From IMG/VR virus record IMGVR_UViG_2563366891_000016: a stretch of DNA of 40,687 bases; one strand, 5' to 3'. The notes under the pieces are model-generated. The model searched no databases, was not told the origin of the DNA, and was given only the letters and a program-made list of their open reading frames with translations. Both the position numbers and the translations under genes were made by a program. Below, piece by piece: positions 17,605 through 40,311 of the stretch. This stretch comes from a virus. Lineage: Duplodnaviria > Heunggongvirae > Uroviricota > Caudoviricetes. The first letter of the stretch is position 1. Each line of letters starts with the position of its first letter.

Positions 17605-17620
17605 TAATAATTCTCAACTT

Positions 17621-21923: not shown

Positions 21924-21933
21924 AGGAAACATC

Positions 21934-23163: not shown

Positions 23164-23209
23164 TTAGTCTTTTTACGTAATACAGCACGCCGCGTAATGC
23201 GGTTTTTTT

Positions 23210-23231
23210 GTGCCCGCGTTCTGGCGGGCAC
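23210..23231 (+). terminator. Hairpin after the capsid gene (possible partial terminator)
   Basis: 8-bp stem gtgcccgc/gcgggcac immediately before the next RBS aggagg. Confidence 0.35.
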
Positions 23232-23241
23232 AGGAGGTTTT

Positions 23242-23972: not shown

Positions 23973-24468
23973 TTTCAAACAACCGGAGGAGATGGAGTTT
24001 AACCGTGCCAGGCTCCGAAGGGCATTTGTTCAAATCGGGCGTGTCTATATGCGTGATGCCCGGCGGCTGGTGATGCGACGTGGTCGGTCTGCTCCAGGTG
24101 AAAACCCCGGCTATCAGACCGGACGACTTGCGCGTTCTATAGGTTATTACGTCCCCCGTAAAAGCTCCCGTCGTTCTGGCCTGATGGTCAGGATTTCCCC
24201 TAACCAGAAAAACGGGCAGGGTAACCGGCGTTTTCCTGAAGGTTCTGCGTATTATCCGGCGTTTCTGTATTACGGTGTGCGTCATGCCGCATACGGGATG
24301 AGCAAAAAGGATAAGCGCCAGAAAAAGCAGCATTCATCCCGCTGGCGGCTGGCACCACGTAATAACTTTATGGCTGATGTCATCGACCAGCGTCGTTACT
24401 GGACACAAAAGTTACTGTCCCGTGAGTTACAGCGGTCATTACGTCCTGTAAGAAGGAAAAAAACATGA
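23917..24468 (+). CDS. HK97 gp10-like neck/tail component
   Basis: GTG start overlapping the previous gene; basic 183-aa protein. Confidence 0.45.
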   Translation: MPKNKWEDAVDQTAFLHVDFKQPEEMEFNRARLRRAFVQIGRVYMRDARRLVMRRGRSAPGENPGYQTGRLARSIGYYVPRKSSRRSGLMVRISPNQKNGQGNRRFPEGSAYYPAFLYYGVRHAAYGMSKKDKRQKKQHSSRWRLAPRNNFMADVIDQRRYWTQKLLSRELQRSLRPVRRKKT

Positions 24469-25025
24469 AACTGACTCCTGTTATTGCTGCGCTGCGTGCC
24501 CGCTGCCCGTATTTTGAAAACCGGGTGGCAGGCGCGGCCCAGTTCAAAAATCTGCCGGAGGTCGGAAAGCTGAAACTCCCGGCGGCATATGTGGTACCGG
24601 GGGATGATTCTCCGGGAGAAAACAAAAGCCAGACCGACTACTGGCAGGAGCTGAAAGAGGGTTTCTCCGTGGTTGTCATACTGAGTAACGGGCGTGATGA
24701 GCGCGGTCAGTTTGCCTCGTATGATGTGGTGGACGATGTCCGGCAGATGCTCTTTAAGGCCCTGCTGGGCTGGAACCCGGAAGCGTGCGGTAACCCGATT
24801 ACCTATGACGGCGGCACGCTGCTGGATCTGAATCGTCATGAGCTGATTTATCAGTTCGATTTTTCGGTCATCAGCGAGCTGACTGAAGACGATACCCGCC
24901 AGCAGGATGACCTGAACAGTCTGGATGAACTGCAAACGCTGGCGATTGATGTTGATTATCTTGAGCCCGGTAACGGGCCTGACGGCGATATCGAACATCA
25001 CACCGAAATAACCCTTCCTTCCTGA
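24465..25025 (+). CDS. Tail terminator / tail completion protein (Mu gp37-like)
   Basis: 186-aa protein immediately upstream of the sheath/tube pair. Confidence 0.45.
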   Translation: MKLTPVIAALRARCPYFENRVAGAAQFKNLPEVGKLKLPAAYVVPGDDSPGENKSQTDYWQELKEGFSVVVILSNGRDERGQFASYDVVDDVRQMLFKALLGWNPEACGNPITYDGGTLLDLNRHELIYQFDFSVISELTEDDTRQQDDLNSLDELQTLAIDVDYLEPGNGPDGDIEHHTEITLPS

Positions 25026-25033
25026 GGATCCTC

Positions 25034-25204
25034 ATGTTTGTCAAACCTGTTAAAGGGCGGTCAGTTCCTGATCCTGCCCGCGGCGACCTTTTGCCCGCCG
25101 AAGGGCGAAATGTTGATGAGAACAACTACTGGCTGCGCCGTGAAGCAGCGGGTGATATCCGGCGCGTGAATAAAAAGGTGAACACCGATGACGATAAGCT
25201 TTAA
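25034..25204 (+). CDS. Small hypothetical protein (56 aa)
   Basis: ATG with gagga RBS in the gap before the sheath gene; overlaps the sheath start. Confidence 0.3.
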   Translation: MFVKPVKGRSVPDPARGDLLPAEGRNVDENNYWLRREAAGDIRRVNKKVNTDDDKL

Positions 25205-26684
25205 CACCATTCCGTCGAATACGCTGGTTCCGTTGTTTTATGCGGAAATGGATAACCAGGCGGCGAATACTGCACAGGACAGCCGAGCATCGCTGCTGAT
25301 TGGTCATGCCAATAACGGTGCAGAGATTGTTGCCAACAGTCTGGTACTGATGCCGTCGGCAGACTATGCACGCCAGATTTGTGGTGCGGGAAGTCAGCTG
25401 GCGCGTATGGTCGAGGCTTATCGCCAGACTGACCCGTTTGGCGAGCTGTATGTGATTGCCGTTCCGGAAGCCACAGGCGCGGCGGCAACGGTTACGCTGA
25501 CGGTGACCGGGGCAGCAACCGAAACCGGCACGGTGAATGTGTATGTGGGACGTACCCGCGTGCAGGCACCGGTGACCAACGGCGATAACGTCACGACGAT
25601 TGCCAGCAGTATCAAAGATGCCATCAATGCCGTTCCGGCCCTGCCGTTTACGGCCTCATCTTCGGCAGGCGTGGTCACACTGACCGCGCGTCATAAGGGG
25701 CTTTGCGGGAATGAAATTCCTGTCAGCCTCAATTACTACGGCTTTGGTGGGGGCGAAGTGCTGCCAGCGGGCGTACAGATTGCCGTGGCGACGGGTACCG
25801 CCGGAACGGGTGCTCCGGTTCTCACCGGCGCGGTGGCTGCAATGGCGGATGAGCCGTTTGATTATATCGGCCTGCCGTTCAACGACACGGCCTCCGTTAA
25901 CACGCTGGTGACCGAGATGAACGATACCAGCGGTCGCTGGAGCTATGCGCGTCAGCTGTATGGTCATGTGTATACGGCAAAGACCGGCACGCTGTCAGAA
26001 CTGGTGACCGCAGGTGACCAGTTTAACCAGCAGCACATTACCCTGGCGGGGTACGAAAAAGACACCCAGACGCCTGCCGACGAGCTGGCGGCAAGCCGTA
26101 CCGCCCGCGCAGCGGTGTTTATCCGCAACGATCCGGCACGTCCCACGCAGACCGGTGAGCTGGTGGGTATGCTGCCTGCGCCGAAGGGGAAACGGTTCAC
26201 GATGACCGAACAACAGACCCTGCTGTCTCATGGCGTGGCAACGGCGTATGTCGAAAGCGGGGTACTGCGCATTCAGCGTGATGTCACCACGTACAGGAAA
26301 AACGCTTACGGGGTTGCGGATAACAGCTACCTCGACAGCGAGACGCTGCATACCAGCGCGTATGTACTGCGCAAACTGAAATCCGTCATTACCAGTAAGT
26401 ACGGGCGTCACAAGCTTGCCAGTGACGGTACCCGCTTTGGTCCTGGTCAGGCGATTGTCACCCCGGCGGTGATCAAAGGGGAACTGCTGGCAACCTACCG
26501 TCAGCTCGAGCGTGCGGGGATCGTGGAAAACTACGAACTGTTCAAGCAGTACCTGGTTGTGGAGCGTGATGCCAGCGATCCGAACCGCCTGAACACGCTG
26601 TTCCCGCCTGACTATGTTAACCAGTTGCGTGTCTTTGCCGTGGTTAACCAGTTCCGTCTTCAGTATTCAGAGGAGTCTGCATAA
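25188..26684 (+). CDS. Contractile tail sheath protein (Mu L-like)
   Basis: 498-aa protein followed directly by a 118-aa tube protein. Confidence 0.8.
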   Translation: MTISFNTIPSNTLVPLFYAEMDNQAANTAQDSRASLLIGHANNGAEIVANSLVLMPSADYARQICGAGSQLARMVEAYRQTDPFGELYVIAVPEATGAAATVTLTVTGAATETGTVNVYVGRTRVQAPVTNGDNVTTIASSIKDAINAVPALPFTASSSAGVVTLTARHKGLCGNEIPVSLNYYGFGGGEVLPAGVQIAVATGTAGTGAPVLTGAVAAMADEPFDYIGLPFNDTASVNTLVTEMNDTSGRWSYARQLYGHVYTAKTGTLSELVTAGDQFNQQHITLAGYEKDTQTPADELAASRTARAAVFIRNDPARPTQTGELVGMLPAPKGKRFTMTEQQTLLSHGVATAYVESGVLRIQRDVTTYRKNAYGVADNSYLDSETLHTSAYVLRKLKSVITSKYGRHKLASDGTRFGPGQAIVTPAVIKGELLATYRQLERAGIVENYELFKQYLVVERDASDPNRLNTLFPPDYVNQLRVFAVVNQFRLQYSEESA

Positions 26685-27040
26685 TGGCCCGTATCGGGGG
26701 AACCTGTTATTTCAAAATTGACGGTCAGCAGCTATCGCTGACCGGCGGCATTGAGGTGCCCATGAACAGGACGGTCAATGATGACATCATCGGCCTGGAC
26801 GGCTCAGTGGACCGCAAGGAAACTCACCGTGCGCCTTATGTCAAAGGGACCTTCAAGGTGCCGAAGAATTTTCCGGTGAACAAAATCACCTCGTCTGATG
26901 AGATGACAATCACTGCCGAGCTGGCGAACGGTCAGGTCTATGTACTGTCGTCTGCCTGGCTGCACGGCGAAGCGAACCATAATGCCGAAGAAGGCACGGT
27001 TGATCTTGAGTTCCACGGTGAAGAAGGGGATTACCAGTAA
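26684..27040 (+). CDS. Tail tube protein (Mu M-like)
   Basis: 118 aa, ATG overlapping the sheath stop. Confidence 0.75.
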   Translation: MARIGGTCYFKIDGQQLSLTGGIEVPMNRTVNDDIIGLDGSVDRKETHRAPYVKGTFKVPKNFPVNKITSSDEMTITAELANGQVYVLSSAWLHGEANHNAEEGTVDLEFHGEEGDYQ

Positions 27041-27309
27041 TGAAAGAGCTTGAGTTAAAGAAACCGATTACCGCTCATGGCGAGACACTCTCCGTACTGG
27101 AGTTTGATGAGCCCACCGGGAAAGATGTCCGCGAGCTGGGATATCCCTACCAGATGAATCAGGATGAGTCCGTCAGACTTCTGGCGCATGTGGTATCGAA
27201 ATACATCGTGCGGCTGGCGAAAGTGCCGCAAAGCTCTGTCGACCAGATGTCTCCGGCAGACCTGAATGCAGCGGCGTGGCTTGTGGCCGGTTTTTTCCTC
27301 CAGGCCTGA
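27040..27309 (+). CDS. Tail assembly chaperone (short form)
   Basis: Between tube and tape-measure genes; contains a slippery heptamer near its 3' end. Confidence 0.65.
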   Translation: MKELELKKPITAHGETLSVLEFDEPTGKDVRELGYPYQMNQDESVRLLAHVVSKYIVRLAKVPQSSVDQMSPADLNAAAWLVAGFFLQA

Positions 27310-27458
27310 CGGCTGAATACCTCACTGATCGCTTCTTTGACTGCGCCAGCTACTGGCGCATTAATCCCTTCGAATTGCTGAATATGCCGATCAGTGAAAT
27401 TCCCTTGCTGGTCAGTCAGGCAAACAGGATAGAGCAGGAGAAACGCACACATGGCTGA
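27276..27458 (+). CDS. Tail assembly chaperone -1 frameshift extension
   Basis: -1 frame ORF overlapping the chaperone 3' end and ending just inside the tape-measure gene; slippery site T-TTT-TTC at 27291-27297. Confidence 0.55.
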   Translation: MACGRFFPPGLTAEYLTDRFFDCASYWRINPFELLNMPISEIPLLVSQANRIEQEKRTHG

Positions 27459-29286
27459 ATTTGAGCTTAAGGCGTTGATCACCGGTGTCGACAGGCTTTC
27501 TCCCGCGCTGTCGAAAATGCAAAAGAAAATCCGGGGATTTAAACGCCAGGCGGAAGAAGCGTCACAGGGTGGGCTGGCGCTTGGTGGCGGACTGGCAGCG
27601 GGTCTGACGCTTTCCCTGAAATCTTATGCCGATCAGGAAAACGCCGCCACCGGGCTGAAAGTCGCCATGATGGATGCGAACGGCGAGGTTGGAAAGAGCT
27701 TTCAGGACATCAATAAACTGGCTATTGGCCTGGGTAACCAGCTACCCGGTACAACGGCTGATTTCCAGAACATGATGCAGATGCTGGTGCGTCAGGGGAT
27801 CCCGGCAGAAAACATTCTTGGCGGTGTGGGTAAAGCGACAGCTTATCTTGCGGTACAACTGAAAAAAACACCGGAAGCGGCTGCTGAGTTTGCTGCAAAG
27901 ATGCAGGATGCTACCGGAACGGCGTCAGAAGACATGATGGGGCTGTTCGACACTATCCAGAAGGCGTTTTATCTGGGCGTTGACGATACCAACATGTTGT
28001 CCTTCTTCACTAAAACCAGTTCTGTTCTGAAGATGGTGAATAAGGACGGACTTCAGGCTGCACAGAGCCTTGCCCCTATCAGCGTCATGATGGATCAGAT
28101 GGGGATGAACGGGGAGTCGGCAGGTAATGCCCTGCGAAAAGTTATCCAGTCCGGATTAAGCGTTAAGAAAATCAGGGACGTCAATAAAGTCATGGCCCGC
28201 CAGAAACTCGGGGTGCAGCTCGATTTTACTGACGGCAAAGGGAGTTTTGGCGGTCTTGATAACATGTTTAAGCAACTGGCAAAGCTGCGAAAACTGACCG
28301 ACGTTAAGCGAACAGGTGTACTTAAGGCAATATTTGGTGATGATGCCGAAACCCTTCAGGTGGTCAATGCTCTGATCGATAAAGGAAAGGATGGTTACGA
28401 TCAGATCCAGCAGAAGATGAATAAACAGGCCAGCCTGAATAAACGTGTTCAGGCACAGCTTGGTACGCTGTCCAACCTGTGGGAGGCAATGACGGGGACC
28501 GCAACTAACGGTCTTGCAGCTATTGGCGGCGCATTTTCTGGTGACGCTAAAAATATCACGCAATGGCTGGGGGAGTTGGGGGAAAAATTCACGAAGTTTG
28601 CGGATGAAAATCCCCGGGTTATTCGCGGCGTCGTCGGGCTTGCTGCCGGTCTTGCGATTCTGAAACTGGGATTGATGGGCGTGGGCAGTGCCATCAGTAT
28701 TGTCAGCAGGATCATGTCGATGACGCCGATTGGCATGATTGCGACGGCGATTGCTCTGGCTGCGGGATTAATTATCACTAACTGGGATGTTGTCGGACCT
28801 TATTTCAAGAAGCTCTGGGAAACCATTGGTCCTTATTTTGAGGCTGGCTGGGAACTTCTGAAGAAGGTTTTTGCCTGGTCGCCGCTGGGGATGGTAATCA
28901 ATAACTGGGGACCGGTTGTTAAGTGGTTTCAGGATATGTGGGACAAGCTGAAGCCAATTATTGAGTGGTTTACCGACAGTTCCGGTGACACGGTCGATGC
29001 CATTAACTCTGCGCAGTGGGGCGCGGGTGCTTATGATGCTTATGGGACGGGAATACCGGCACGGGGATACACACCTTATCAGGCGGTGGATCCGGCTCAG
29101 TCAAACAACGCCTCCGATGCCACAGGCCCGAATCCCTTCATGATTAACAAAGCTTCTGCGCCAAAAGTTGATGGTGAGATCAAGGTCTCTTTTGTGAATT
29201 CGCCTCCGGGTATGCGGGTTATGGAAACGCGATCCAGCGGTTTTGATGTCAGCCATGATGTTGGCTATACGCGCTTTGGCAGGTAA
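27451..29286 (+). CDS. Tail tape measure protein
   Basis: 611-aa protein with long helical and Gly/Ala-rich membrane-like segments, after the chaperone pair. Confidence 0.85.
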   Translation: MAEFELKALITGVDRLSPALSKMQKKIRGFKRQAEEASQGGLALGGGLAAGLTLSLKSYADQENAATGLKVAMMDANGEVGKSFQDINKLAIGLGNQLPGTTADFQNMMQMLVRQGIPAENILGGVGKATAYLAVQLKKTPEAAAEFAAKMQDATGTASEDMMGLFDTIQKAFYLGVDDTNMLSFFTKTSSVLKMVNKDGLQAAQSLAPISVMMDQMGMNGESAGNALRKVIQSGLSVKKIRDVNKVMARQKLGVQLDFTDGKGSFGGLDNMFKQLAKLRKLTDVKRTGVLKAIFGDDAETLQVVNALIDKGKDGYDQIQQKMNKQASLNKRVQAQLGTLSNLWEAMTGTATNGLAAIGGAFSGDAKNITQWLGELGEKFTKFADENPRVIRGVVGLAAGLAILKLGLMGVGSAISIVSRIMSMTPIGMIATAIALAAGLIITNWDVVGPYFKKLWETIGPYFEAGWELLKKVFAWSPLGMVINNWGPVVKWFQDMWDKLKPIIEWFTDSSGDTVDAINSAQWGAGAYDAYGTGIPARGYTPYQAVDPAQSNNASDATGPNPFMINKASAPKVDGEIKVSFVNSPPGMRVMETRSSGFDVSHDVGYTRFGR

Positions 29287-29309
29287 TGAAAAATTAATCT
29301 GTTAATGAG

Positions 29310-29331
29310 TCCCACTCCGGTGGGATTTTTT
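29310..29331 (+). terminator. Intrinsic terminator after the tape-measure gene
   Basis: Stem tcccac/gtggga with loop tccg followed by a T-run. Confidence 0.5.
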
Positions 29332-29346
29332 ATGTACGGAGTTTAT

Positions 29347-30675
29347 ATGACGTGGAAAGACAGACTTCAGGACGCGTCATTTCGCGGTGTGCCGTTTAAG
29401 GTTGAAGAAGAAAGTGCGGGAACCGGTCGTCGTGTGGAAACGCACGAATACCCGAACCGCGACAAACCCTATACCGAAGACCTGGGGAAAATCACTTTCC
29501 GCCCGTCCATCACAGCTTATGTGGTGGGAGATGACTGCTTTGACCAGCGCGATCGCCTGATTGACGCGCTGAATAAACCCGGTCCCGGCACGCTTGTCCA
29601 TCCGACTTACGGTGAGCTGAAAGTCTGTGTTGACGGAGAGGTTCGGGTCAGCACATCGAAGAGTGAAGGGCGTATTGTCCGCTTTGACCTGAAGTTTGTC
29701 GAAGCGGGAGAACTCTCTTACCCCACTTCAGGTGCGGCGACGGCGCAGACGCTGATGTCATCCTGTTCTGCACTGGATGACTGCATCAGTGACAGCTTCA
29801 GTGGTTTCAGTATCGATGGCGTGGCAGATTTTGTGCAGAACGACGTCGTCGGTAATGCCAGCACAATGCTTGGGTATGTTTCTGATGCGATGAAAGTGGT
29901 GGATTCTGCCGTATCGGATGCCGCCAGGCTGTTGCAGGGGGATATCTCGGTACTTCTGCCGCCGCCATCGTCAGGCAAAAATTTCGTTGAGCAGGTGCAG
30001 AAAATGTGGCGTACCGGGAAACGCCTTTATGGTAACGCCAGCGACCTGGTCACCATGATCAAAACGCTTTCCGGTGTCAGCCTCGGCAGCGATCTGCAAC
30101 CGCGCGGCGTCTGGAAAACGGACAGTAAAACCACCGCCACGGCGACGCAGCAGCGTAACGTGGTTGCCAGCACCCTTCGTACGACCGCAATCAGCGAAGC
30201 GGCGTATGCCGTCACACGATTGCCTGCGCCCACAACTTCCGCGGTGATGCAGAATGCCACAGTGGGGCAGTCAACAACACCCGCGCAGAGCACCGGCTGG
30301 CCTTCTGTCACGCATCCGGCACTGAACAATGCACCGGCGGTGAAAAACACGGTTGACCTGCCAACGTGGGAAGAACTGACCGACATTCGCGACACACTGA
30401 ATACGGCAATTGATAAGGAGTTGTCCCGTACAACCAGTGATGCGCTGTTTCTGGCGCTGCGCCGGGTGAAAGCAGATCTGAATGCGGATATCAACACGCG
30501 CCTTGAACAGTCTGCACGGATCATTCAGCGCACGCCGGATGAGGTTTTACCCGCGCTGGTGCTGGCGGCGACCTGGTTTGATAACGCGGCGCGTGACGCG
30601 GACATTATCCGGCGTAATGCCATTACGCATCCCGGCTTTGTGCCGGTGATCCCTCTGAAGGTGCCAGTGCAATGA
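29347..30675 (+). CDS. DNA circularization protein (Mu N-like)
   Basis: ATG 29347 with ggag RBS; N-terminal MTWKDRLQDASFRGVPF as recalled for Mu N-type proteins. Confidence 0.65.
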   Translation: MTWKDRLQDASFRGVPFKVEEESAGTGRRVETHEYPNRDKPYTEDLGKITFRPSITAYVVGDDCFDQRDRLIDALNKPGPGTLVHPTYGELKVCVDGEVRVSTSKSEGRIVRFDLKFVEAGELSYPTSGAATAQTLMSSCSALDDCISDSFSGFSIDGVADFVQNDVVGNASTMLGYVSDAMKVVDSAVSDAARLLQGDISVLLPPPSSGKNFVEQVQKMWRTGKRLYGNASDLVTMIKTLSGVSLGSDLQPRGVWKTDSKTTATATQQRNVVASTLRTTAISEAAYAVTRLPAPTTSAVMQNATVGQSTTPAQSTGWPSVTHPALNNAPAVKNTVDLPTWEELTDIRDTLNTAIDKELSRTTSDALFLALRRVKADLNADINTRLEQSARIIQRTPDEVLPALVLAATWFDNAARDADIIRRNAITHPGFVPVIPLKVPVQ

Positions 30676-31751
30676 ACGATAACGTCACGCTACGGGTAAA
30701 TGGCCGGGAGTGGAATGGCTGGACATCGGTGCGCATCGGTGCCGGTGTTGAACGACTGGCGCGGGATTTCAGTGTGGAGATCACCCGCCAGTGGCCGGGA
30801 GATGAGGGTATTACCACGCTTCAGCCGCGCATTAAAAACGGTTCAAAAGTGGAAGTGCTGATTGGTGATGAGCTGGTGATCACCGGCTGGGTGGAGGCGA
30901 CGCCCGTTCGTTACGATGCCCGTTCGGTCAGCACCGGTATTGCCGGACGTAGTCTGACCGCTGATCTGATTGACTGTGCAGCCGAACCGACACAGTTTAA
31001 CGGACGATCGCTGGTACAGATTGCGCAGGCGCTTGCTGCGCCTTTCGGCATTGAGGTGGTGAACAGCGGTGCGCCGTCGGGTGTTATTCCTGATGTCCAG
31101 CCTGATCACGGTGAAACGGTGATTGAGGTGATCAACAAAATACTTGGTCAGCAGCAGGCGCTGGCTTACGACGACCCGCACGGCAGGCTGGTGATTGGCG
31201 GTATTGGCTCAACGCGGGCACATACCGCGCTGGTACTCGGGGAAAACATCCTTTCCTGCGATACGGAGAAGAGTATCCGGGAGCGGTTTTCTGTTTACCA
31301 GGTGGCGGGGCAGCGTGCCGGAAACGATGATGATTTCGGTGAGGCCACCACCACCGCGCTGCGGGCCCGCACAGAGGACGCATTTATTGCCCGTTACCGT
31401 CCGATGTATATCAGGCAGACAGGGCAGGCTACGGGGGCAGGCTGTATTGCGCGTGCTGACTTTGAAGCCCGGCAACGGGCGGCGCGGACGGATGAAACCA
31501 CCTATGTGGTGCAGGGCTGGCGACAGGGTAACGGTACGCTGTGGCAGCCCAACCAGCGGGTGATTGTCTTCGATCCGGTCTGTGGTTTCGACAATACCGA
31601 ACTGCTTGTCTCGGAAGTCACGTTTACTCAGGACCAGAACGGCACCCTGACGGAAATCCGTGTCGGCCCGCCTGATGCTTATCTGCCTGAACCCGAAGCC
31701 CCCGGCGCGCGGAAAAAGAAAAAAGCCAGAGTACAGGAGGACCCGTTCTGA
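30672..31751 (+). CDS. Baseplate hub protein (Mu P-like)
   Basis: 359 aa, overlapping start; conserved position in a Mu-type baseplate cluster. Confidence 0.6.
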   Translation: MNDNVTLRVNGREWNGWTSVRIGAGVERLARDFSVEITRQWPGDEGITTLQPRIKNGSKVEVLIGDELVITGWVEATPVRYDARSVSTGIAGRSLTADLIDCAAEPTQFNGRSLVQIAQALAAPFGIEVVNSGAPSGVIPDVQPDHGETVIEVINKILGQQQALAYDDPHGRLVIGGIGSTRAHTALVLGENILSCDTEKSIRERFSVYQVAGQRAGNDDDFGEATTTALRARTEDAFIARYRPMYIRQTGQATGAGCIARADFEARQRAARTDETTYVVQGWRQGNGTLWQPNQRVIVFDPVCGFDNTELLVSEVTFTQDQNGTLTEIRVGPPDAYLPEPEAPGARKKKKARVQEDPF

Positions 31752-32299
31752 TGAGGACGATTGAAGCCATGCAGCGACAACTCCTCGGCCTGATTGGGCG
31801 GGCCGTGGTGAAAAGCATCAGTGCCGCCACGAAATGTCAGACCGTGGATGTGTCCCTGATTGCCGGTGAACCCAAAGCCGGGGTTGAACATCTTGAACCC
31901 TACGGTTTTACCGCAAGGGCAAACAGCGGTGCGGAAGCGGTGGTGTTGTTTCCGGATGGCGACCGTTCTCATGCGGTGGTTGTTACGGTGTCGGACCGTC
32001 GCTACCGCCTGAAAGGGCTGCAGACGGGTGAGGTGGCTGTCTATGACGATCAGGGGCAGTCCGTGACGCTGACCCGGGAGGGGATCGTGGTGGACGGTGC
32101 AGGTAAAACGATCACGTTTCGCAATGCGCCTAAGGCACGTTTTGAAATGGACCTGGAAGTGACCGGACAGGTGAAAGACCTGTGCGACTCCGGCGGCACC
32201 ACCATGTCAGCGATGCGGCTTGCCTATAACGGGCATCGTCACAGAGAGAACGGTCAGGGCAGTAACACCGACAAACCTGATAAAGCGATGGAGGCATGA
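31751..32299 (+). CDS. Baseplate assembly protein V (spike)
   Basis: 182 aa in gpV position. Confidence 0.6.
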   Translation: MRTIEAMQRQLLGLIGRAVVKSISAATKCQTVDVSLIAGEPKAGVEHLEPYGFTARANSGAEAVVLFPDGDRSHAVVVTVSDRRYRLKGLQTGEVAVYDDQGQSVTLTREGIVVDGAGKTITFRNAPKARFEMDLEVTGQVKDLCDSGGTTMSAMRLAYNGHRHRENGQGSNTDKPDKAMEA

Positions 32300-32724
32300 T
32301 GGAAGTGTGGCTGACGGTGAACGGTAAACGCACCTGCGCCAGCGCACCGCTGGATCCGCTGACCCGCGCCGTGGTGATTTCCCTGTTTACCTGGCGGCGG
32401 GCGGAGCCTGATGACAATGCCGACGTCCCGATGGGATGGTGGGGGGATACCTGGCCTGCGGTACAGAATGACCGTTACGGCTCCCGACTGTGGCTGCTTC
32501 AACGCAGCAAACTGACCAATCAACTGGTGCAGACGGTAAGGGGGTATATCCGCGAATGCCTGCAATGGATGATTGATGACGGCGTGGTGTCCCGTATTGA
32601 TCTGGATATCCGCCGCACCGGGATTAATGAACTGGGTAACAGTATCACTCTCTGGCGTCGTGACGGACCGGTAATGATTTCTTTTGATGATCTGTGGAGT
32701 GCGATAACGCATGGCGAACAGTGA
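32296..32724 (+). CDS. Baseplate protein (Mu gp46-like)
   Basis: 142 aa, overlapping genes in the baseplate cluster. Confidence 0.55.
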   Translation: MMEVWLTVNGKRTCASAPLDPLTRAVVISLFTWRRAEPDDNADVPMGWWGDTWPAVQNDRYGSRLWLLQRSKLTNQLVQTVRGYIRECLQWMIDDGVVSRIDLDIRRTGINELGNSITLWRRDGPVMISFDDLWSAITHGEQ

Positions 32725-33769
32725 ATTTCAGCGCCCGACGCTGGCAGAAAATATCAGTATGCTCCGTAACGATTTATTCGCCAGGCTGGACGTCAGCGAC
32801 ACGCTCCGGCGCATGGATGAAGACGTGCGGGCAAAGGTGTATGCGGCGGCGCTGCATACGGTTTACGGTTACATCGATTATCTGGCAATGAACATGCTGC
32901 CTGACCTGTGCGATGAGTCCTGGCTGGCGCGACATGCTGCGATGAAACGGTGTCCGCGCAAGGGGGCCACGGCTGCCAGCGGGTATATGCGCTGGGAAGG
33001 TGTCAGCGATGGCCTGAAGGTGACCGCCGGGAGTGTTATTCAGCGCGATGACCTGGTTCAGTACATGGCAACTGCCGATGCAACCAGCTCCGGTGGTGTC
33101 CTGCGCGTGCCGATCGCATGCTCAAATGCAGGCGCGGTCGGTAACGCTGACGACGGTTCGGCATTAATCCTGGTCACGCCGGTGAATGGTCTGCCGTCTT
33201 CCGGTGTGGCTGACACCCTGACAGGCGGATTTGATACTGAAGAGCTGGAAACGTGGCGCGCCCGCGTCATTGAGCGGTATTACTGGACGCCGCAGGGCGG
33301 GGCTGACGGGGACTATGTCGTCTGGGCTAAAGAAGTGCCCGGCATTACCCGCGCATGGACATACCGTCACTGGATGGGAACGGGAACTGTCGGTGTGATG
33401 ATTGCCAGCAGTGACCTGATTAATCCCATTCCGGAAGAATCAACGGAAACGGCGGCAAGACAACATATCGGGCCACTGGCCCCGGTGGCAGGCTCTGATT
33501 TGTATGTGTTCAGGCCGGTGGCACATACGGTGGATTTTCATATCCGCGTGACGCCGGACACACCGGAAATACGGGCTGCCATCACCGCGGAGTTGCGTTC
33601 GTTCCTGCTGCGTGATGGTTATCCGCAGGGAGAACTGAAGGTATCGCGTATCAGTGAGGCGATTTCCGGTGCGAACGGGGAATACAGCCATCAGTTGCTT
33701 GCACCGGCAGACAATATCTCCATTGCAAAAAATGAACTGGCGGTTCTGGGGACGATTTCATGGACGTGA
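32711..33769 (+). CDS. Baseplate J-like protein (Mu gp47-like)
   Basis: 352 aa in the conserved baseplate position. Confidence 0.65.
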
Positions 33770-34344
33770 CAAACGATGATTACATCCGTCTGTTGTCGGC
33801 ACTGTTGCCCCCCGGTCCGGCGTGGTCAGCCAGCGATCCGGCGATTGCCGGTGCGGCACCGTCATTAACCCGCGTTCATCAGCGTGCGGATGCCCTGATG
33901 CGGGAGCTGGATCCGCGCACCACCACCGAACTGATAAACCGCTGGGAGCGTCTGTGCGGCCTGCCGGATGAATGTATTCCGGCAGGGACACAGACCCTTC
34001 GCCAGCGTCAGCAACGACTGGATGCGAAGGTTAACCTGGCGGGCGGCATCAATGAGGATTTTTACCTTGCACAGCTTGCTGCCCTGGGCAGACCAGACGC
34101 CACCATCACGCGATACGACAAAAGCACGTTCACCTGCTCATCGGCCTGTACTGACGCGGTGAATGCGCCGGAATGGCGGTATTACTGGCAGGTCAACATG
34201 CCAGCCGCCACCAACACCACCTGGATGACATGTGGCGATCCCTGTGATTCCGCACTGCGTATCTGGGGCGACACCGTTGTCGAGTGTGTGCTTAACAAAC
34301 TCTGCCCGTCGCATACCTACGTAATTTTTAAATATCCGGAGTAA
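33760..34344 (+). CDS. Tail protein (Mu gp48-like)
   Basis: 194 aa between baseplate J and the tail fiber. Confidence 0.55.
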
Positions 34345-34347
34345 TTC

Positions 34348-35352
34348 ATGCATCGTATAGACACGAAAACCGCGCAGAAGGATAAGTTCGGCGCGGGTAA
34401 GAACGGTTTTACCCGTGGTAACCCCCAGACCGGCACGCCTGCTACCGATCTGGATGATGACTACTTTGACATGTTGCAGGAAGAGCTTTGTGGCGTGGTG
34501 GAGGCATCCGGTGCCAGCCTGGAGAAGGGGCGAAACGACCAGTTGCTTACCGCGCTTCGTGCGCTGCTGTTAAGCCGCAAGAATCCGTTTGGTGATATCA
34601 AATCGGATGGCACGGTGAAAACGGCTCTCGAAAACCTTGGTTTGGGAGATGGAACAGGAAGACTCATTGCAGTGTACCGGATTGACACATCCCGGCAAAT
34701 TACACTGCCGAAAGATGCCAGGTTTGTTGTGGCAGATATGATTGGTGGCGGAGGCGGCGGTGGCAGTAACTCCACGACCGTACAACCCGGATATGCGTCA
34801 GCAGGGCAGGGCGGGAATTCAGGTAGCCGTGTGGTAGCAAAATTCACAGTTGATGCCAGTCAGAAAATTAATATTACTATTGGCGCAGGTGGTGCGGGGG
34901 GCGTGACAACTCCCGCAACCGGAGCTAATGGAAGTGACGGTGGGGCTACGATTATCGACGGTATTACAGCTACTGGTGGGCGAGGTGGAGCTAAGGGGGC
35001 AGCATTTAATGTTCTGCCAACCGGCGGGCCTACAGCGATTCAGAATGCTAATAACACCATTCCTGGAGGAGCAGAATTGATAGCACAGCATCTCGGGTAT
35101 GGTGGAAGCTCTGGATTTCTGTTCTCGGATAAAAATGCGATTGGCGGGAAAGGGGCTGACTCTGAATTCGGAGTGGGCGGTGTGGCAGTCGGAATTAGCT
35201 CAGGAGTCAATGCATCGACGGGAAAAAATGCCACAGGTAATGGCTCTGGCGGAAGCGGCGCGGTCTCTATTTATGGATCAGGGTCTACCGGGGTGTCTAT
35301 GTCGGGTGGAGCAGGGGCTGACGGTCTGGCGATTTTGTGGGTATACGGCTAA
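34348..35352 (+). CDS. Tail fiber protein with glycine-rich repeat domain
   Basis: Conserved fiber-type N-terminus ([21 protein letters not shown]...) then a long G/S/A/T-rich region; followed by a Tfa gene. Confidence 0.75.
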
Positions 35353-35747
35353 TGAACAGATACGCATTAATTAAAAACAATATTGTTGTTAATATCGTTG
35401 TTTGGGATGGCGCAGGAGATATGTTTGCCGATTTTAAGGCAGTTAATATCTCTGGTGTTGCAGTTGATATTGGATGGATCTATGACGGAAATAATTTCAC
35501 AGCCCCCCCCGAACCTGAGAAAACTAAAGAACAGTTAATCCAGGAAGCAGAACTCGAAAAAGAAGGGCGCATACGTGCTGCAAATGATTTTATTAACAGC
35601 AAGCAGTGGCCCGGTAAAGCGGCTATTGGTCGTCTGAAAGGTGACGAACTGGAGCAATATAATTTGTGGCTGGATTATCTGGACGCACTGGATGCTGTAG
35701 ATACTTCAACTGCACCAGAAATAGACTGGCCTCAGCAATCAGAATAA
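35352..35747 (+). CDS. Tail fiber assembly protein (Tfa-like)
   Basis: TAATG overlap with the fiber stop; [20 protein letters not shown] is a typical Tfa N-terminus. Confidence 0.7.
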   Translation: MNRYALIKNNIVVNIVVWDGAGDMFADFKAVNISGVAVDIGWIYDGNNFTAPPEPEKTKEQLIQEAELEKEGRIRAANDFINSKQWPGKAAIGRLKGDELEQYNLWLDYLDALDAVDTSTAPEIDWPQQSE

Positions 35748-35783
35748 AAATATGGGGCAGCGCCCCATATTTCTCGTTGACTG

Positions 35784-36830
35784 TCATATTAAAGCTTTTC
35801 GTAAAAGTGTCTTGCCGATTAAAACACCTCTTCGCTCTACAAGCTTGTGCGCAAAATAACAAACTATAAATAACAATAATAATATTTGAATGTTACTATT
35901 GATGTATTTAATTCCGATTTTATTAACTACTAATAACAAAGAGTCCCAAATCCAGTTATGAAATAAGTACACAGCATAAGTCATTTCAGATAGCAAATTG
36001 CATGCTTTGGATTCAATGAATCTATCTTTAAATAACCACGAACAAAGAAAAATAACAGTTCCTGTGAATGCGTAGTTGTAGTGCCCCCAGAATGGGTTTA
36101 TTTTTTCAATGAGAGATAAATGAAGATAGAACATAGTTACGATGGATATTAAAGCAACAATCCGATTAACTAACTTATGCTCTGTAAGGTACACTACTAC
36201 ACCTATAAACAAAAATGGCGTATACAAGGTGAAGTAAGCATTATGAAAATCCTTCGCTACAGGGAAAGGATTAATGGTGGATATAAATAATGATATAAAA
36301 AGTAGTAGAACTGTTAAAACGTTTCCTTTATTTATGAGTCCGACTTTTTTAACCAAACCCATAAACACATAGAACAGCATTTCTATTCTTAACGTCCATT
36401 CAACACCAGCCAATGAAAGAGGTGTGTTAAAGAAATCGCCTATAAGCAATAATCTAGGTATTATTATGCTCAGAGGTGGAATGTTTCCACCATTATAGTA
36501 TTGGATCAACATTTCAGCTAAAACAGCAAAAATATAGAGTGGGTATATTCTAAATATTCTTTTTAAATAAAATTCAAAAGTTGCTTCTTTTTGTAGTACG
36601 TGGGTGATGATGTACCCTGAAACAAGAAAGAAGATCACAACCCCCATTGCACCACCGAAACTGGCATCTGCTAGTAATCCGTAAAAAAGCCTCAGTGTAA
36701 AGTGGTTACTTGGATCGTTCGCCAACGAAGATAAATCTTTGTTGAACTTATGACCTAACACCACAAGGGAGAACGCAATTACACGCATGTAATCTAAAAA
36801 AAGAATTCGACGATTGTTCATGATTTTCAT
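35784..36830 (-). CDS. Acyltransferase family 3 integral membrane protein (O-antigen acetyltransferase-like)
   Basis: AT-rich gene; polytopic membrane protein with FLDYMRVIAFSLVVLGH near the N-terminus (OafA/Oac-type conserved R and H); sits between tail genes and the integrase, as O-antigen modification genes do in Sf6/SfV-type phages. Confidence 0.7.
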   Translation of the reverse strand: MKIMNNRRILFLDYMRVIAFSLVVLGHKFNKDLSSLANDPSNHFTLRLFYGLLADASFGGAMGVVIFFLVSGYIITHVLQKEATFEFYLKRIFRIYPLYIFAVLAEMLIQYYNGGNIPPLSIIIPRLLLIGDFFNTPLSLAGVEWTLRIEMLFYVFMGLVKKVGLINKGNVLTVLLLFISLFISTINPFPVAKDFHNAYFTLYTPFLFIGVVVYLTEHKLVNRIVALISIVTMFYLHLSLIEKINPFWGHYNYAFTGTVIFLCSWLFKDRFIESKACNLLSEMTYAVYLFHNWIWDSLLLVVNKIGIKYINSNIQILLLLFIVCYFAHKLVERRGVLIGKTLLRKALI

Positions 36831-36905
36831 TTAATTTATTGAGTTGTGATCATTTTATAGCAACTAACCATTGTTAGCTATGCTGTCACCTTGTAAACAA
36901 GATGG

Positions 36906-37232
36906 TTATGTGACATCACCGTCGATCCAGTCCTCCCACCACTGCATCATTTCTCTGCGCTTATCGAGATACTGAGCATGGTTATAAATCCAACGCACAG
37001 ATCCGCCGTTGGCATGCGCCAGTTGAGCTTTAATGACTTTGCGACGCAACTCAATAATCAAGAGCATGGAGTCAATCATCCAATCATCAATTGATCGAGA
37101 ATTGAAGTGGTTGTTGAGACAAAACTGAGACACACAAAGCCTTGCACTTGATTGCAAGGCTTTGGGCTCTTCTGTGGGGGCTACATGTCTGAAGAGCGTT
37201 GTGCCGTATTTGTGACATGCATATAACAACAT
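36906..37232 (-). CDS. Hypothetical protein; real product may be the C-terminal ~57 aa
   Basis: N-terminal half has poor composition; C-terminal ELRRKVIKAQLAHANGGSVRWIYNHAQYLDKRREMMQWWEDW looks protein-like. Confidence 0.3.
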   Translation of the reverse strand: MLLYACHKYGTTLFRHVAPTEEPKALQSSARLCVSQFCLNNHFNSRSIDDWMIDSMLLIIELRRKVIKAQLAHANGGSVRWIYNHAQYLDKRREMMQWWEDWIDGDVT

Positions 37233-37290
37233 AATGCATCAACTTTCTGTTTGTGCCATCAGCTATGGCTTAGTGAATGCAGTTAATGCT

Positions 37291-37345
37291 TGCTAGAATG
37301 ATTGGTGCTACAGATTCGTAATGCGAAGGTTGTAGGTTCGTCCCC
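37291..37345 (+). other. tRNA-Thr-like fragment (pseudo-tRNA / relic attachment core)
   Basis: ATTCGTAATGCGAAGGTTGTAGGTTCG at 37314-37340 matches the anticodon-arm to T-arm segment of tRNA-Thr(CGU) as recalled, but the flanks cannot form an acceptor stem or T-stem. Confidence 0.4.
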
Positions 37346-37496
37346 CTTTTCAGTACTACCTAAATCAATAAGTTACCTAACTTTCAGTTATGACAGAAAG
37401 ATATATATGCCAAGTAAAGTATAGAGAAACTGTCAAAGCAATAAAGGCTGGTGCTCCGTGTGTGGCGGCTGATGTATAGACATTTATGCAGATGAA

Positions 37497-37523
37497 ACGA
37501 AAAAAAGCCCGCATCTGCGGGCT
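37497..37523 (-). terminator. Intrinsic terminator on the minus strand
   Basis: Stem agcccgca/tgcgggct with 2-nt loop, followed on the minus strand by a run of 7 U. Confidence 0.65.
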
Positions 37524-37777
37524 TTCATGTCATTAGGGCACTGCGGCTCCTTTGCGTATCCTTTTTGTTTCCTCACAGTCTGGTCGGTGCCCTGCTGAGA
37601 CCAATAACTTCCAGTTTTTGTTAGTGTTATCCTTACACCGTCCAATCATGATTGGTGGGCTGGCGGGAGTTGAAACTGCAGGCACGTCGTATGCAAGAAC
37701 ATGCTGTGGCTGGCTGCTTTACTTTCGATAGTGCGAGTATTGAATGATTTCCAGCCGTTACCGATTTTACGTGTTAA

Positions 37778-38026
37778 TTAGTGAACAAACCACTCGTCAG
37801 CAGATTCCCAGGTATCTTTCAGAGTCTCCTGAACAAAAGTTTTTACAGAATCCTTATCTGCGGTGCGTGTAACAGAAAGGCCATCGTTGCTGGTGGCTTT
37901 TACGATCACCTCTACATCATCATAACGTTTACTGATGCGTCGGGTTAATTCTTCCTTTAACGCGTCCACAGCACCGGTTGGCATTTTAGTCATTTTTTCT
38001 TTGGCTATGCAGATTTCAATACGCAT
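37778..38026 (-). CDS. DinI-like protein
   Basis: 82 aa with MRIEICIAK start and [10 protein letters not shown] end, matching the DinI family pattern. Confidence 0.65.
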
Positions 38027-38087
38027 AAAAGTCCCTCTGTACTGTGTTTGTATACAGTGTTATTTTTAACTGTATGGATAAACAGTG

Positions 38088-39185
38088 TCAAGAGGTCTTA
38101 TTTCTGCTCCTTTGGAGCTCTTCAAAACGATTATGTAAAGATTTCGGATACAGTTCGGTATATACCTGCCATAGCACGTTTAATGAACGATGCCCTGTAA
38201 CTTGGGCGACTTCCTCAATACTAAAACCAGCCTCAAATAAGCGACTTGCCCCTTCTCTACGCAAATCATGGTATCGCAGATCTTTAATACCTAATTTGCT
38301 TCTTACCCTCTGAAATCCCGCAGTAACAGAAGTGCTGTTATATGGAAAAATGAATTCCGATTTTTGGGGCTGTCGTTGGACGATATCCCAGGCTTCCCCA
38401 AGCAAGGCTACTTTCATGTGGTTGCCTTCCTTTTTGCGTGGATCTTTCCTGTCTCTTACGAGTATAGATTTTTGTTCTTGGTCGAGATCTTCCCATCGTA
38501 ACCGGCATACTTCTCCGATTCGCATACAGGACCACACAGAAAATTTGAGGATATCAACGAACGGAATTTTTGAGCATTTATGAGTAGATCGTTGTTGAAG
38601 GCCTTCAATGAGCATGTCCAGTTCATCAGATGCTGGTCTACGATTACGACGGTTTGATTTACCAATCAAACCAAGTTTAAGTAGATATGGACGAGCGCTT
38701 TTCGCTGGGTTTGATGTGTAATTAATTCCGTATACAGGTTTGGCTGCATCCAGAACACTGCCAAGATAACTAACATCGTGGCTGACTGTTGCTGGACCTG
38801 CACCAGCGTTGTTTCTTAGCCTGCAATGTTCAATTACGTCATTTTCGGTCAGTTCGGATAGTTTGATCGCGGAGATGTCACTATCCATAAGCAGTTCCAG
38901 CACATATCTTTTAGTACGGCCTGCTTTACCTCCGGCATTTGGGTCATTTAAATATTTGTGTAGTAAGTCACGGACTGTAAGTCCGTCAACTGCATTTGAT
39001 GATGGAATGCCATATAGATCTAATTCCATCACTTTCTGTGTACCCCATGTTTTGGCATGGGCATGTTTAGGGAATGTTTTGCTTTCCCTGTAAGTGATAA
39101 CACCTTTTTCTTTGATAATCACATTACAGCGATAGCGTGGTGTGCCATCGGATTTTAGTCGTTTCTCTATGTTATAGTACGCCAT
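38088..39185 (-). CDS. int: Tyrosine site-specific integrase (dusA-associated type)
   Basis: 365-aa protein with a candidate catalytic R...HxxR...Y arrangement (RIGE, HDLRR, C-terminal Y); encoded directly next to attR and the phage-supplied dusA 5' end. Confidence 0.85.
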   Translation of the reverse strand: MAYYNIEKRLKSDGTPRYRCNVIIKEKGVITYRESKTFPKHAHAKTWGTQKVMELDLYGIPSSNAVDGLTVRDLLHKYLNDPNAGGKAGRTKRYVLELLMDSDISAIKLSELTENDVIEHCRLRNNAGAGPATVSHDVSYLGSVLDAAKPVYGINYTSNPAKSARPYLLKLGLIGKSNRRNRRPASDELDMLIEGLQQRSTHKCSKIPFVDILKFSVWSCMRIGEVCRLRWEDLDQEQKSILVRDRKDPRKKEGNHMKVALLGEAWDIVQRQPQKSEFIFPYNSTSVTAGFQRVRSKLGIKDLRYHDLRREGASRLFEAGFSIEEVAQVTGHRSLNVLWQVYTELYPKSLHNRFEELQRSRNKTS

Positions 39186-39204
39186 TACACGACCTCGTTA
39201 TTTC

Positions 39205-39240
39205 GGGTTCCCATAAAATGTGGGAACCTGTGCGGGAACC
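39205..39240. promoter_or_regulatory. Repeated (T/C)GGGAACC motifs between int and dusA (putative integrase arm sites and/or dusA promoter)
   Basis: gggttccc (inverted) at 39205-39212, tgggaacc at 39221-39228, cgggaacc at 39233-39240; a further copy tgggaacc at 1477-1484 just inside attL. Confidence 0.4.
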
Positions 39241-39273
39241 TAACGCGAGAAAAATAGCCTGAAATGTTCAAAA

Positions 39274-40311
39274 ATGCACGATAATCCTGAAACACAGAAA
39301 ACTAATCAAACCAGCGTGATGCCTGAAAAAACTGGCGCTTACTGGAGTTCCCGGTTTAGCATTGCTCCTATGCTCGACTGGACGGACAGACATTGCCGCT
39401 ATTTCTTGCGTCTGCTTTCCCGCAATACGTTGCTGTATACCGAAATGGTGACTACAGGGGCGATTATTCACGGTAAAGGTGATTACCTGGCGTACAGTGA
39501 AGAAGAACATCCGGTAGCATTGCAACTGGGCGGTAGCGATCCGGCGGCGCTGGCGCAGTGTGCAAAGCTGGCAGAAGCGCGCGGATATGATGAGATCAAC
39601 CTGAATGTCGGCTGCCCGTCTGACCGGGTGCAGAACGGCATGTTTGGGGCGTGTCTGATGGGTAATGCGCAGCTGGTTGCCGACTGCGTGAAAGCGATGC
39701 GCGATGTGGTGTCGATTCCGGTGACGGTGAAAACGCGTATTGGCATCGACGACCAGGACAGCTATGAATTTCTCTGCGATTTCATCAACACCGTTTCCGG
39801 CAAAGGCGAGTGTGAGATGTTCATCATCCACGCACGTAAAGCCTGGCTTTCGGGGTTAAGCCCGAAAGAAAACCGTGAAATCCCGCCGCTCGATTATCCG
39901 CGTGTGTATCAACTGAAGCGTGACTTTCCGCATCTGACAATGTCGATTAACGGTGGCATCAAGTCGCTGGAAGAGGCTAAAGCGCATTTGCAACATATGG
40001 ATGGCGTGATGGTCGGGCGCGAAGCGTATCAGAATCCGGGTATTCTGGCGGCGGTAGACCGAGAGATCTTTGGTTCCTCGGATACCGATGCCGATCCGGT
40101 GGCGGTAGTGCGCGCCATGTATCCGTACATTGAGCGTGAACTCAGCCAGGGGACGTATCTTGGCCATATTACCCGGCATATGCTGGGCTTGTTCCAGGGT
40201 ATTCCTGGCGCGCGGCAGTGGCGGCGTTATTTAAGTGAAAATGCCCATAAAGCGGGTGCAGACATTAATGTGCTGGAACACGCGCTCAAACTGGTGGCGG
40301 ATAAGCGTTAA
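39274..40311 (+). CDS. dusA: tRNA-dihydrouridine synthase A, with phage-supplied 5' end
   Basis: 345-aa ORF with the DusA TIM-barrel sequence as recalled ([13 protein letters not shown] ... NLNVGCPS ... VKTRIG); the first ~35 codons belong to the prophage arm. Confidence 0.9.
39320..39377 (+). other. attR crossover region within the dusA 5' end
   Basis: Identical blocks shared with attL (atgcctgaaaaaactg, atgctcga); homology ends at 39377 on this side and at 1423 on the attL side. Confidence 0.55.

Follow-up and report, generated by a model that had tools for sequence, protein, structure and literature searches.

In Shigella and Salmonella, O-antigen acetylation by prophage genes is a well-established phenomenon; it is documented for very few Escherichia coli phages, phiV10 being the example. 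Here, we analyze a gene of the acyltransferase-3 (AT3) family in a DNA stretch of 40,687 nt (IMG/VR virus record IMGVR_UViG_2563366891_000016; hereafter, the window), which contains a complete temperate E. coli prophage between a yjbM-like gene and dusA. The gene is intact and full-length, and on balance we read it as a stand-alone lysogenic-conversion moron that would O-acylate an O-antigen of the O2/O50 type, with an expression, acyl donor, acceptor, and phenotype that we infer. The coordinates of the features are collected in Table 1.

Described Systems Closest to the Locus

Among the characterized AT3 proteins tested, the closest one was Oac of Shigella phage Sf6 (32 bits against the family profile). 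Both proteins consist of the AT3 domain alone, are of similar size (333 and 348 aa for Sf6 Oac and the window protein, respectively), and contain the motifs R-X10-H, FFxxSG, RXXR, and WTL..E. The architecture of the two loci is identical, since in Sf6 the receptor-binding (tailspike) gene is followed by a terminator toward which oac and intS are directed from the opposite side. The main chain of the host O-antigen is likewise composed of rhamnose (Rha) and N-acetylglucosamine (GlcNAc) in the order Rha-Rha-Rha-GlcNAc. However, the identity between the proteins is 24% and covers the N-terminal 192 residues only, Sf6 Oac was not recovered by tblastn at E ≤ 1e-3, and both the host species and the O-antigen linkages are different. 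The window protein falls outside the Sf6-type Oac/OacA orthologue group (rhamnose 2-O-acetyltransferase).

The Oac protein of phiV10 (E. coli O157), annotated with a superinfection immunity function, is also an AT3-only O-antigen acetyltransferase of a temperate E. coli phage, and its gene is convergent to the tail-fibre gene. In contrast to these likenesses, no significant pairwise or profile similarity beyond the family level was found between the two proteins, and phiV10 is an epsilon15-like podovirus associated with a different serogroup.

The gtrABS/gtrABC cassettes of CPS-53, SfV, and P22 resemble the locus in their position, namely the slot between the tail-fibre/tailspike module and int/att in argW-type prophages, and in being lysogenic-conversion morons for O-antigen modification at the periplasmic face. 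In the CPS-53 prophage of K-12, the order is argW-intS-gtrA-gtrB-gtrS (yfdGHI), with the tail-fibre assembly gene directed toward them further on. Unlike the AT3 gene, these cassettes comprise three genes, their proteins are unrelated to it, and they carry out glucosylation through undecaprenyl phosphate glucose (Und-P-Glc).

OafA and OafB of Salmonella (GtrC family II) have an AT3 domain with the same essential R-X10-H and RXXR motifs. They differ in having an eleventh transmembrane helix and a periplasmic SGNH domain for the final transfer, whereas the window protein ends after the AT3 domain, and the signatures of Dam/OxyR phase variation are not evident upstream of the window AT3 gene. OafB is prophage-borne (BTP1) and blocks that phage's own tailspike (PMC9558356, PMC9833829). 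For WecH and OpgC of K-12, the family profile gave 7.9 and −8.9 bits and BLASTP gave E-values of 0.29 and 2.0, respectively, which does not make them orthologues. A preliminary description of the window had proposed a homology search against the Oac, OafA, and WecH families; the membership in the AT3 family was borne out by it, and orthology to Oac, OafA, or WecH was not.

Two further candidates were set aside. Phage Kapi1 also integrates at argW and modifies the O-antigen, but its candidate genes are unrelated to the AT3 gene and gave no phenotype. The 'gnarl' genes (Nat Commun 2025) encode small unrelated proteins.

The AT3 Gene Is an Intact Member of the Acyltransferase-3 Family

The AT3 open reading frame (ORF) is uninterrupted and encodes 348 aa from the first ATG. 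The RefSeq start for near-identical copies is M4, giving 345 aa, and the N-terminus MK(I)MNNRR is kept in more distant relatives. Residues 10–323 of the protein correspond to positions 2–316 of the 326 positions of the Pfam profile PF01757 (Acyl_transf_3), with a score of 82.6 bits against a cut-off of 31.

An alignment of 36 homologous sequences, with identities down to 41%, contains 43 invariant columns, and the window protein keeps all 43 of these residues. In the first transmembrane helix (TMH1), both residues of the R16-X10-H27 motif are invariant. The stretch V64-V-I-F67-F68-L-V-S71-G72-Y73 fits the motif V-x-x-F-F-x-(I/V/L)-S-G-(F/W/Y), which includes the Lag-1 serine, and its residues F67, F68, S71, and G72 are invariant, as are both arginines of the RXXR motif R91-I-F-R94 at the cytoplasmic end of TMH3. 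The invariant columns further take in a block on the periplasmic side, E144-W145-T146-L147-R148-x-E150. The R/K-X10-H motif in TMH1 is essential in OafA/OafB (PMC9833829), and the motifs found in the AT3 protein are those essential in Oac, OafA/OafB, OatA, and Lag-1 (PMC9558356, PMC9833829).

The AlphaFold2 model of the protein (predicted local distance difference test score, pLDDT, 91.5; predicted template modelling score, pTM, 0.90) is all-helical up to the C-terminus and has the TmAT fold of about ten transmembrane helices that is common to HGSNAT and GWT1. The PDB sequence search with the AT3 protein gave no match. Since the protein stops at residue 348 and PF01757 is its sole Pfam domain, it lacks the SGNH domain and the eleventh transmembrane helix of the AT3-SGNH class and is therefore an AT3-only enzyme, like Oac.

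The GC content of the gene is 33.4% (33.5% at third codon positions), compared with 54.6% for the structural genes (17500–35300) and 49.9% for the whole window. The ratio of non-synonymous to synonymous substitution rates (dN/dS) is 0.12–0.13 against relatives of 86–87% identity, indicating that the AT3 gene is under purifying selection. The gene is an intact, full-length, and selected member of the acyltransferase-3/TmAT superfamily. The preliminary description had recognized a 348-aa membrane acyltransferase with the OafA/Oac-type R/H motif and a GC content lower than that of the phage core, and it was right in both respects; a disrupted or truncated reading frame, which it had named as a reason for doubt, was looked for by alignment and does not occur in the window.

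Relatives of the AT3 Protein and Their Gene Neighbourhoods

The tblastn search of 50,697 phage records showed no close homologue of the AT3 protein, the best match being one of 25% identity in Erwinia phage 59. Enterobacterial relatives have an identity of 51–87%, and the two contexts examined are prophage DNA beside tail-fibre or tailspike genes; the Enterobacter homologue adjoins a Tail_spike_N protein. The cluster of sequences at the 90% level to which the AT3 protein belongs has 156 members. The relatives in Pseudomonas, Legionella, and other Proteobacteria, which are uncharacterized, align over the full length at about 41–49% identity and are members of the same subfamily. The scan of species-representative genomes returned relatives of about 49% identity or less and no enterobacterial locus. 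As judged from these comparisons, the AT3 gene defines an uncharacterized AT3 subfamily without a close homologue in deposited phage genomes.

The neighbourhoods of more distant homologues were also inspected. In IMG/VR proviruses with homologues of 37–46% identity, the nearest convergent downstream ORF encodes a tail fibre or tailspike in nine out of ten cases. In the one Pseudomonas locus examined, the homologue lies beside a fragment of a lambda-type integrase gene, and the Janthinobacterium homologue adjoins a glycosyltransferase gene.

The chromosomal homologues of Legionella spp. (loci L103, L106, L120, and L126; 40–42% identity) stand beside RmlA, RmlB, DegT, and FdtA/WxcM-hexapeptide genes. 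These neighbours belong to the same deoxythymidine diphosphate (dTDP)-3-amino-3,6-dideoxyhexose/rhamnose pathway as the O2/O50 cluster, and the neighbourhood of the Legionella homologues can be assigned from its gene content to a deoxy-amino-sugar O-antigen-type cluster.

The AT3 family is not confined to glycans: some of its members modify antibiotics or Nod factors, and what the AT3 domain of VanT does is unclear (PMC9558356). The window protein might thus act without glycan modification, for example in small-molecule acylation or as a transporter or exclusion protein. We hold such a role to be very improbable, since every characterized prophage-borne AT3 protein encoded next to receptor-binding genes modifies the O-antigen (PMC9558356), and since the position of the gene, its host association (see below), and the neighbourhoods of its relatives all favour a surface polysaccharide.

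Prophage Contexts of the AT3 Gene

The E. coli survey set consisted of 5426 complete genomes, six of which carry the AT3 cassette. The gene lies in an SfV-like argW prophage in HCP4S3_I4 and in a myovirus-like lambdoid prophage at dacD-sbcB in BEN2908. E26, JEB8, and WP9-S17-ESBL-11 have it at bio/attLambda within a lambda-like prophage, and DX6 has a diverged copy in a BEN2908-type prophage; in the window, it lies in a dusA prophage. Copies of about 99% identity are thus distributed over four or more prophage backbones or sites of integration. An IMG/VR provirus with the same dusA context has a DNA identity of 99.6% and an AT3 protein with one difference (F44V), and metagenome contigs with this context encode exactly the window AT3 protein. 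The DX6 copy (L179 9001–10043) is about 90% identical at the DNA level (89.8–90.4%) and contains a 1-nt indel close to codon 10; its annotation begins at an internal start codon (334 aa). The HCP4S3_I4 copy (L001 6487–7533) is annotated as two coding sequences because of a nonsense mutation, Y96*, in the invariant RIYP motif.

The canonical dusA prophage, as seen in E. coli M8, has the order gp53-like fibre, chaperone, invertible alternative fibre segment, invertase, dinI, int, dusA. The M8 prophage matches the window only up to position 34649 and resumes from 37672. Meanwhile, window positions 34001–37034 are 97.9% identical to the argW prophage of HCP4S3_I4, and both HCP4S3_I4 and BEN2908 match the window from about 34626 onwards. 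In HCP4S3_I4, the glycine-rich fibre gene and the chaperone gene point toward the AT3 gene, which is followed, on the opposite strand, by intS and argW. These matches identify an argW prophage as the donor of 34650–37034 (2.4 kb, comprising the fibre tip, chaperone, AT3 gene, and intS stub), and in that prophage the AT3 gene holds the slot of CPS-53 gtrABS and Sf6 oac.

The window gene is found in a temperate prophage, beside receptor-binding genes and at the int/att end, as is characteristic of a serotype-converting module. The serotype-conversion position had been suggested in the preliminary description by analogy with Sf6 oac and CPS-53 gtr, and it agrees with the gene orders and with the 129 nt of intS retained. 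The orientation given there, opposite to the tail-fibre assembly gene, was also correct. The gene had further been placed between the tail-fibre assembly gene and the integrase; it does lie there, but not directly adjacent to a functional integrase, as the intS remnant, non-coding DNA, and dinI intervene.

The adjacent 108-codon ORF had been described as uncharacterized. The Pfam search gave no match for it, and only about 41 C-terminal residues (residues 64–103) match anything, namely the C-terminus of an IntS-type integrase. The last ~43 codons of the ORF are the 3′ end of an argW-type intS; this stub matches positions 354–393 of 413 in the NF007246 profile and is 83% identical in amino acid sequence to residues 344–384 of Sf6 IntS. 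At the DNA level, the match with the complete intS gene of E. coli HCP4S3_I4 ends at 37034. By these alignments, the ORF is not a gene, and a partner protein, as which we also considered it, was ruled out for the same reason.

The intS stubs upstream of the AT3 gene are cut differently among the copies (at 36966, 36994, and 37034), and the 75-nt leader is kept in every copy. As the fibre tip does not accompany the AT3 gene in the lambdoid copies at attLambda, the gene also moves alone. Taken together, the contexts identify the AT3 gene, as far as can be read from its copies, as a mobile moron cassette that is at times co-transferred with the fibre tip and chaperone.

Such co-transfer raises the question of whether the AT3 gene could be a silent passenger of a fibre-tip swap, either unexpressed or without an acceptor in this host. 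It arrived in a 2.4-kb block in which the fibre tip and its chaperone could be the selectable part, and it has been severed from the intS context that originally lay upstream; a terminator is located on the upstream side (37503–37526), a Shine–Dalgarno sequence is not visible, the GC content is very low, and the copy in HCP4S3_I4 is already a pseudogene. Nevertheless, the window ORF is intact with all 43 invariant residues, and the long-term dN/dS is 0.12. Near-identical intact copies exist in the same dusA context (the metagenome contigs and one provirus), the attLambda lambdoid prophages gained the gene without the fibre tip, and none of the three independent intS truncations leaves less than 136 nt in front of the start codon, which would be expected of a stretch containing a promoter. 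A silent passenger is, in our judgement, quite unlikely.

The glycine-rich fibre tip (34660–35340) is present in 5 of the 5426 genomes. In PEC422 and BCE049 (loci L183 and L184; both O2/O50), it adjoins a recombinase/invertase gene and forms one arm of a segment for fibre switching, with no AT3 gene. In E26 (L177 38007–43310), an ISEcp1-blaCTX-M-14 unit is inserted in the chromosome at dacD, with a truncated serine hydrolase gene; dacD is also the site of the AT3 prophage of BEN2908.

Association of the AT3 Cassette with the O2/O50 O-Antigen

Five of the six AT3 carriers (BEN2908, E26, JEB8, WP9-S17-ESBL-11, and HCP4S3_I4) possess O2/O50 wzx/wzy, against a background of 133 genomes with the O2/O50 wzx-wzy stretch in the survey set (2.45%). 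The Fisher exact test gave p = 4.8e-8 when counted by genome, 5.8e-5 by prophage context, and about 2e-3 by host lineage. BEN2908 is O2:H5:K1 (PMC12928451), and both wzx and wzy of E26 are annotated as 'O2/O50 family'. In the pig isolate HCP4S3_I4, the O2/O50 cluster is 97% identical at the DNA level, and its his and O-cluster alleles are different. The O cluster of DX6 is not annotated as O2/O50; it shows a syntenic order rfbBDA-fdtA-fdtC-fdtB-wzx-GT4-rfbC with an amino acid identity of 50–66%, which suggests that DX6 too makes an O-unit of the Rha/3-acetamido-3,6-dideoxyhexose type.

Among the hosts of the fibre tip, at least four out of five are O2/O50, the fifth carrier being MFDS1022581. 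The dusA prophage backbone without the cassette was found in other serotypes, for example, in avian pathogenic E. coli (APEC) O78, and among the matches listed, none of the 15 dusA backbone carriers belonged to the 120 O2/O50 genomes. In this small and partly clonal sample, the AT3 cassette is almost confined to hosts of one O-antigen type, the cluster of the sixth carrier being O2-like. The preliminary description had suggested an O-antigen or another glycan as the target, and the host distribution, the strongest of the new indications on the acceptor, lends this indirect support.

The O2 and O50 units have a common Rha-Rha-Rha-GlcNAc main chain, to which O2 adds a branch of 3-acetamido-3,6-dideoxygalactose (Fuc3NAc) (PMC7685785, PMC5293828). 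The composition of the main chain is the same as that of the S. flexneri backbone acted on by Oac, OacB, and OacD (PMC9558356). The AT3 gene was also considered as the cause of the serological split between O2 and O50 and was rejected, since a point mutation in fdtB is responsible for it (PMC7685785).

Several observations weigh against the O-acylation of an O2/O50-type antigen. The association comprises six genomes, three of which share one prophage context and four of which probably form one clonal complex; BEN2908 and E26 have identical HisD/HisG accessions. It could stem from which hosts the carrier phages infect and not from the acceptor of the enzyme. The O-type of the window host is not readable, as the flanks contain only the yjbM-like gene, dusA, and pspG; we predict it to be O2/O50 or a close relative. 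The O2/O50 O-unit descriptions in PMC7685785 mention no O-acetyl group, and HCP4S3_I4, an O2/O50 carrier, holds the copy interrupted by Y96*. As for expression, the promoter-scan matches upstream of the AT3 gene are no commoner than in shuffled sequence, a Shine–Dalgarno sequence is not recognizable, and silencing by H-NS is plausible because of the GC content of 33%.

The host association also bears on the identity of the acceptor, which might be another envelope glycan: a capsule (e.g., K1 polysialic acid in the carriers of sequence type 95, ST95), enterobacterial common antigen (ECA), colanic acid, osmoregulated periplasmic glucans (OPG), or peptidoglycan. The AT3 sequence does not reveal the substrate, all these glycan classes are among the known targets of AT3 proteins (PMC9558356), and E. 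coli has its own AT3 enzymes for ECA (WecH) and OPG (OpgC), while BEN2908 is K1 (PMC12928451). However, ECA, OPG, colanic acid, and peptidoglycan are shared by all E. coli and leave the confinement to the O2/O50 type unexplained, and the family profile gives WecH 7.9 bits and OpgC none. Moreover, the carriers include pig-faecal and water isolates of other lineages that have the O-antigen type in common, and the chromosomal relatives are located in dTDP-sugar O-antigen-type clusters. We consider an acceptor of this kind unlikely.

Proposed Function of the AT3 Protein

The evidence presented above suggests that the AT3 gene probably encodes a serotype-converting O-acyltransferase specific for the O2/O50-type O-antigen. 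Its mechanism can be proposed by analogy with the established AT3 model (OafA/OafB, Oac, OatA). Transcription would presumably start within the 136 conserved nt that precede the gene. A cytoplasmic acyl-CoA, most probably acetyl-CoA, would be bound by the arginines R16, R91, and R94 at the cytoplasmic face, and the acyl group would pass via the central pore to H27 and the periplasm-facing block E144–E150. On the periplasmic side, it would be transferred to a hydroxyl of an O-antigen repeat that is undecaprenyl-linked or nascent. As the acceptor, the O2/O50-type O-antigen is the most likely one, i.e., the Rha-Rha-Rha-GlcNAc main chain with or without the Fuc3NAc branch. The lysogen would be seroconverted, and phages that read the O-antigen, including those with the co-travelling glycine-rich fibre tip, would adsorb less. 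The association with O2/O50 hosts makes the acceptor directly testable.

It is also possible, although we propose it only tentatively, that the whole cassette is an O2/O50-specific module in which the glycine-rich tip recognizes the O-antigen and the linked AT3 protein O-acylates the same antigen, and which hops between unrelated prophage backbones. These backbones would be the SfV/Mu-tailed (argW, dusA), the myovirus-like lambdoid (dacD-sbcB), and the lambda-like (attLambda) ones.

O2 is a major serogroup of extraintestinal pathogenic E. coli (ExPEC) and APEC and is included in multivalent O-antigen conjugate vaccine candidates. If the O-acylation of this antigen is true, the presence of an acylated O2 variant in some strains would bear on serotyping, vaccine coverage, and the host range of therapeutic phages. 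If the module also exists as outlined, a few per cent of O2 ExPEC/APEC, including ST95 (BEN2908), would show an undescribed acylated O2 subtype. The cassette is a clean example of moron exchange, with or without the adjoining receptor-binding tip, among prophages with different integrases. What it adds to the known kind is a recombining cassette that still holds a stub of its former integrase gene and a tight association with hosts of the O2/O50 type.

Intergenic Signals around the AT3 Gene

As the chaperone gene ends at 35747 on the plus strand, the AT3 gene is convergent to it. The hairpin between the stop codons of the two genes is likely a bidirectional terminator, and Sf6 has an annotated terminator at the equivalent place between the tailspike gene and oac.

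Upstream of the AT3 gene, the promoter scan revealed a candidate promoter TTTACA-16-AACAAT at 36897–36870, and a candidate extended −10 element, TGcTATAAA, was recognized by eye at 36862–36854. The candidate promoter is overlapped by an imperfect palindrome on the minus strand, ATAGCTAAC...GTTAGTTGCTAT (36857–36881), which could be an operator. Three GATC sites are present within 155 nt upstream of the gene. The Dam/OxyR phase-variation layout known from gtr and oafB was considered here as well; in spite of the three GATC sites, paired OxyR half-sites are not recognizable by eye, and such a layout is not claimed.

Architecture of the Prophage and Its Right Arm

The prophage encodes a CI-type repressor, a Q antiterminator, a terminase, an HK97-type head, and a Mu/SfV-like contractile tail. 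The flank with dusA and pspG (39274 onwards) is 99.7% identical to E. coli. In ascending order, the right side of the AT3 gene, i.e., its own upstream side, contains the intS remnant, ~640 nt of non-coding DNA, dinI, the integrase gene, and dusA. The mechanical ORF start of the chaperone gene is GTG 35337, and the metagenome copies are called as 131 aa.

Table 1. Features of the window around the AT3 gene and at the prophage borders.
Feature	Position	Strand	Remarks
DUF2713 (yjbM-like) gene	1–957		Left flank
Tail-fibre gene	34348–35352	+	
Fibre tip (receptor-binding, glycine-rich C-terminus encoded by the tail-fibre gene)	34650–35352	+	PF21722 Gly_rich_2; imported along with the AT3 gene
Tail-fibre assembly (chaperone) gene	35352–35747	+	PF02413 Caudo_TAP; 131 aa from ATG 35352
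Hairpin between the convergent chaperone and AT3 stop codons	35746–35774		13-bp stem and T-run (terminator scan); likely terminator
AT3-only membrane acyltransferase gene	35784–36830	−	348 aa from M1 (345 aa from M4)
Leader upstream of the AT3 gene	36831–36905	−	75 nt; expected promoter site
3′ remnant of argW-type integrase gene intS	36906–37034	−	129 nt
108-codon ORF	36906–37232	−	Chimera in which the intS remnant reads on into unrelated sequence; not a gene
dinI-like gene	37778–38026	−	PF06183 and NF007893; prophage backbone
Tyrosine integrase gene, functional, of the dusA-integrating prophage	38088–39185	−	PF00589; dinI-int-dusA order as in E. coli M8
dusA, host gene and integration site	39274–40311	+	TIGR00742, 581 bits

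The Rfam and tRNA scans of 35000–39400 and of the whole window gave sub-threshold matches only, and ARAGORN called no tRNA. The 279 nt between the intS stub and a thrW-like fragment (37035–37313) had no megablast match in the survey genomes. The thrW-like fragment itself (37314–37340, plus strand) is identical in 26 of 27 nt to positions 31–57 of the K-12 thrW tRNA-Thr(CGU) and has the appearance of an att-core remnant left by a thrW-integrating phage. The non-coding block flanking dinI (37314–37680) has this fragment exactly at its left edge and is ~89% conserved in about 2370 of the survey genomes with no annotation beneath it. The Rfam matches of this block were sub-threshold (STnc350, 29 bits against a cut-off of 60, and the Leu_leader terminator), and a strong terminator hairpin on the minus strand (37503–37526) ends the conserved non-coding block.

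The stretch 34650–37671 replaces two elements of the canonical dusA prophage (E. coli M8, FORC_082), its invertible alternative tail-fibre segment and its Gin-type invertase gene. Owing to this replacement, the right arm appears to hold relics of three integration modules, i.e., the argW intS stub, the thrW-like core, and the working dusA integrase.

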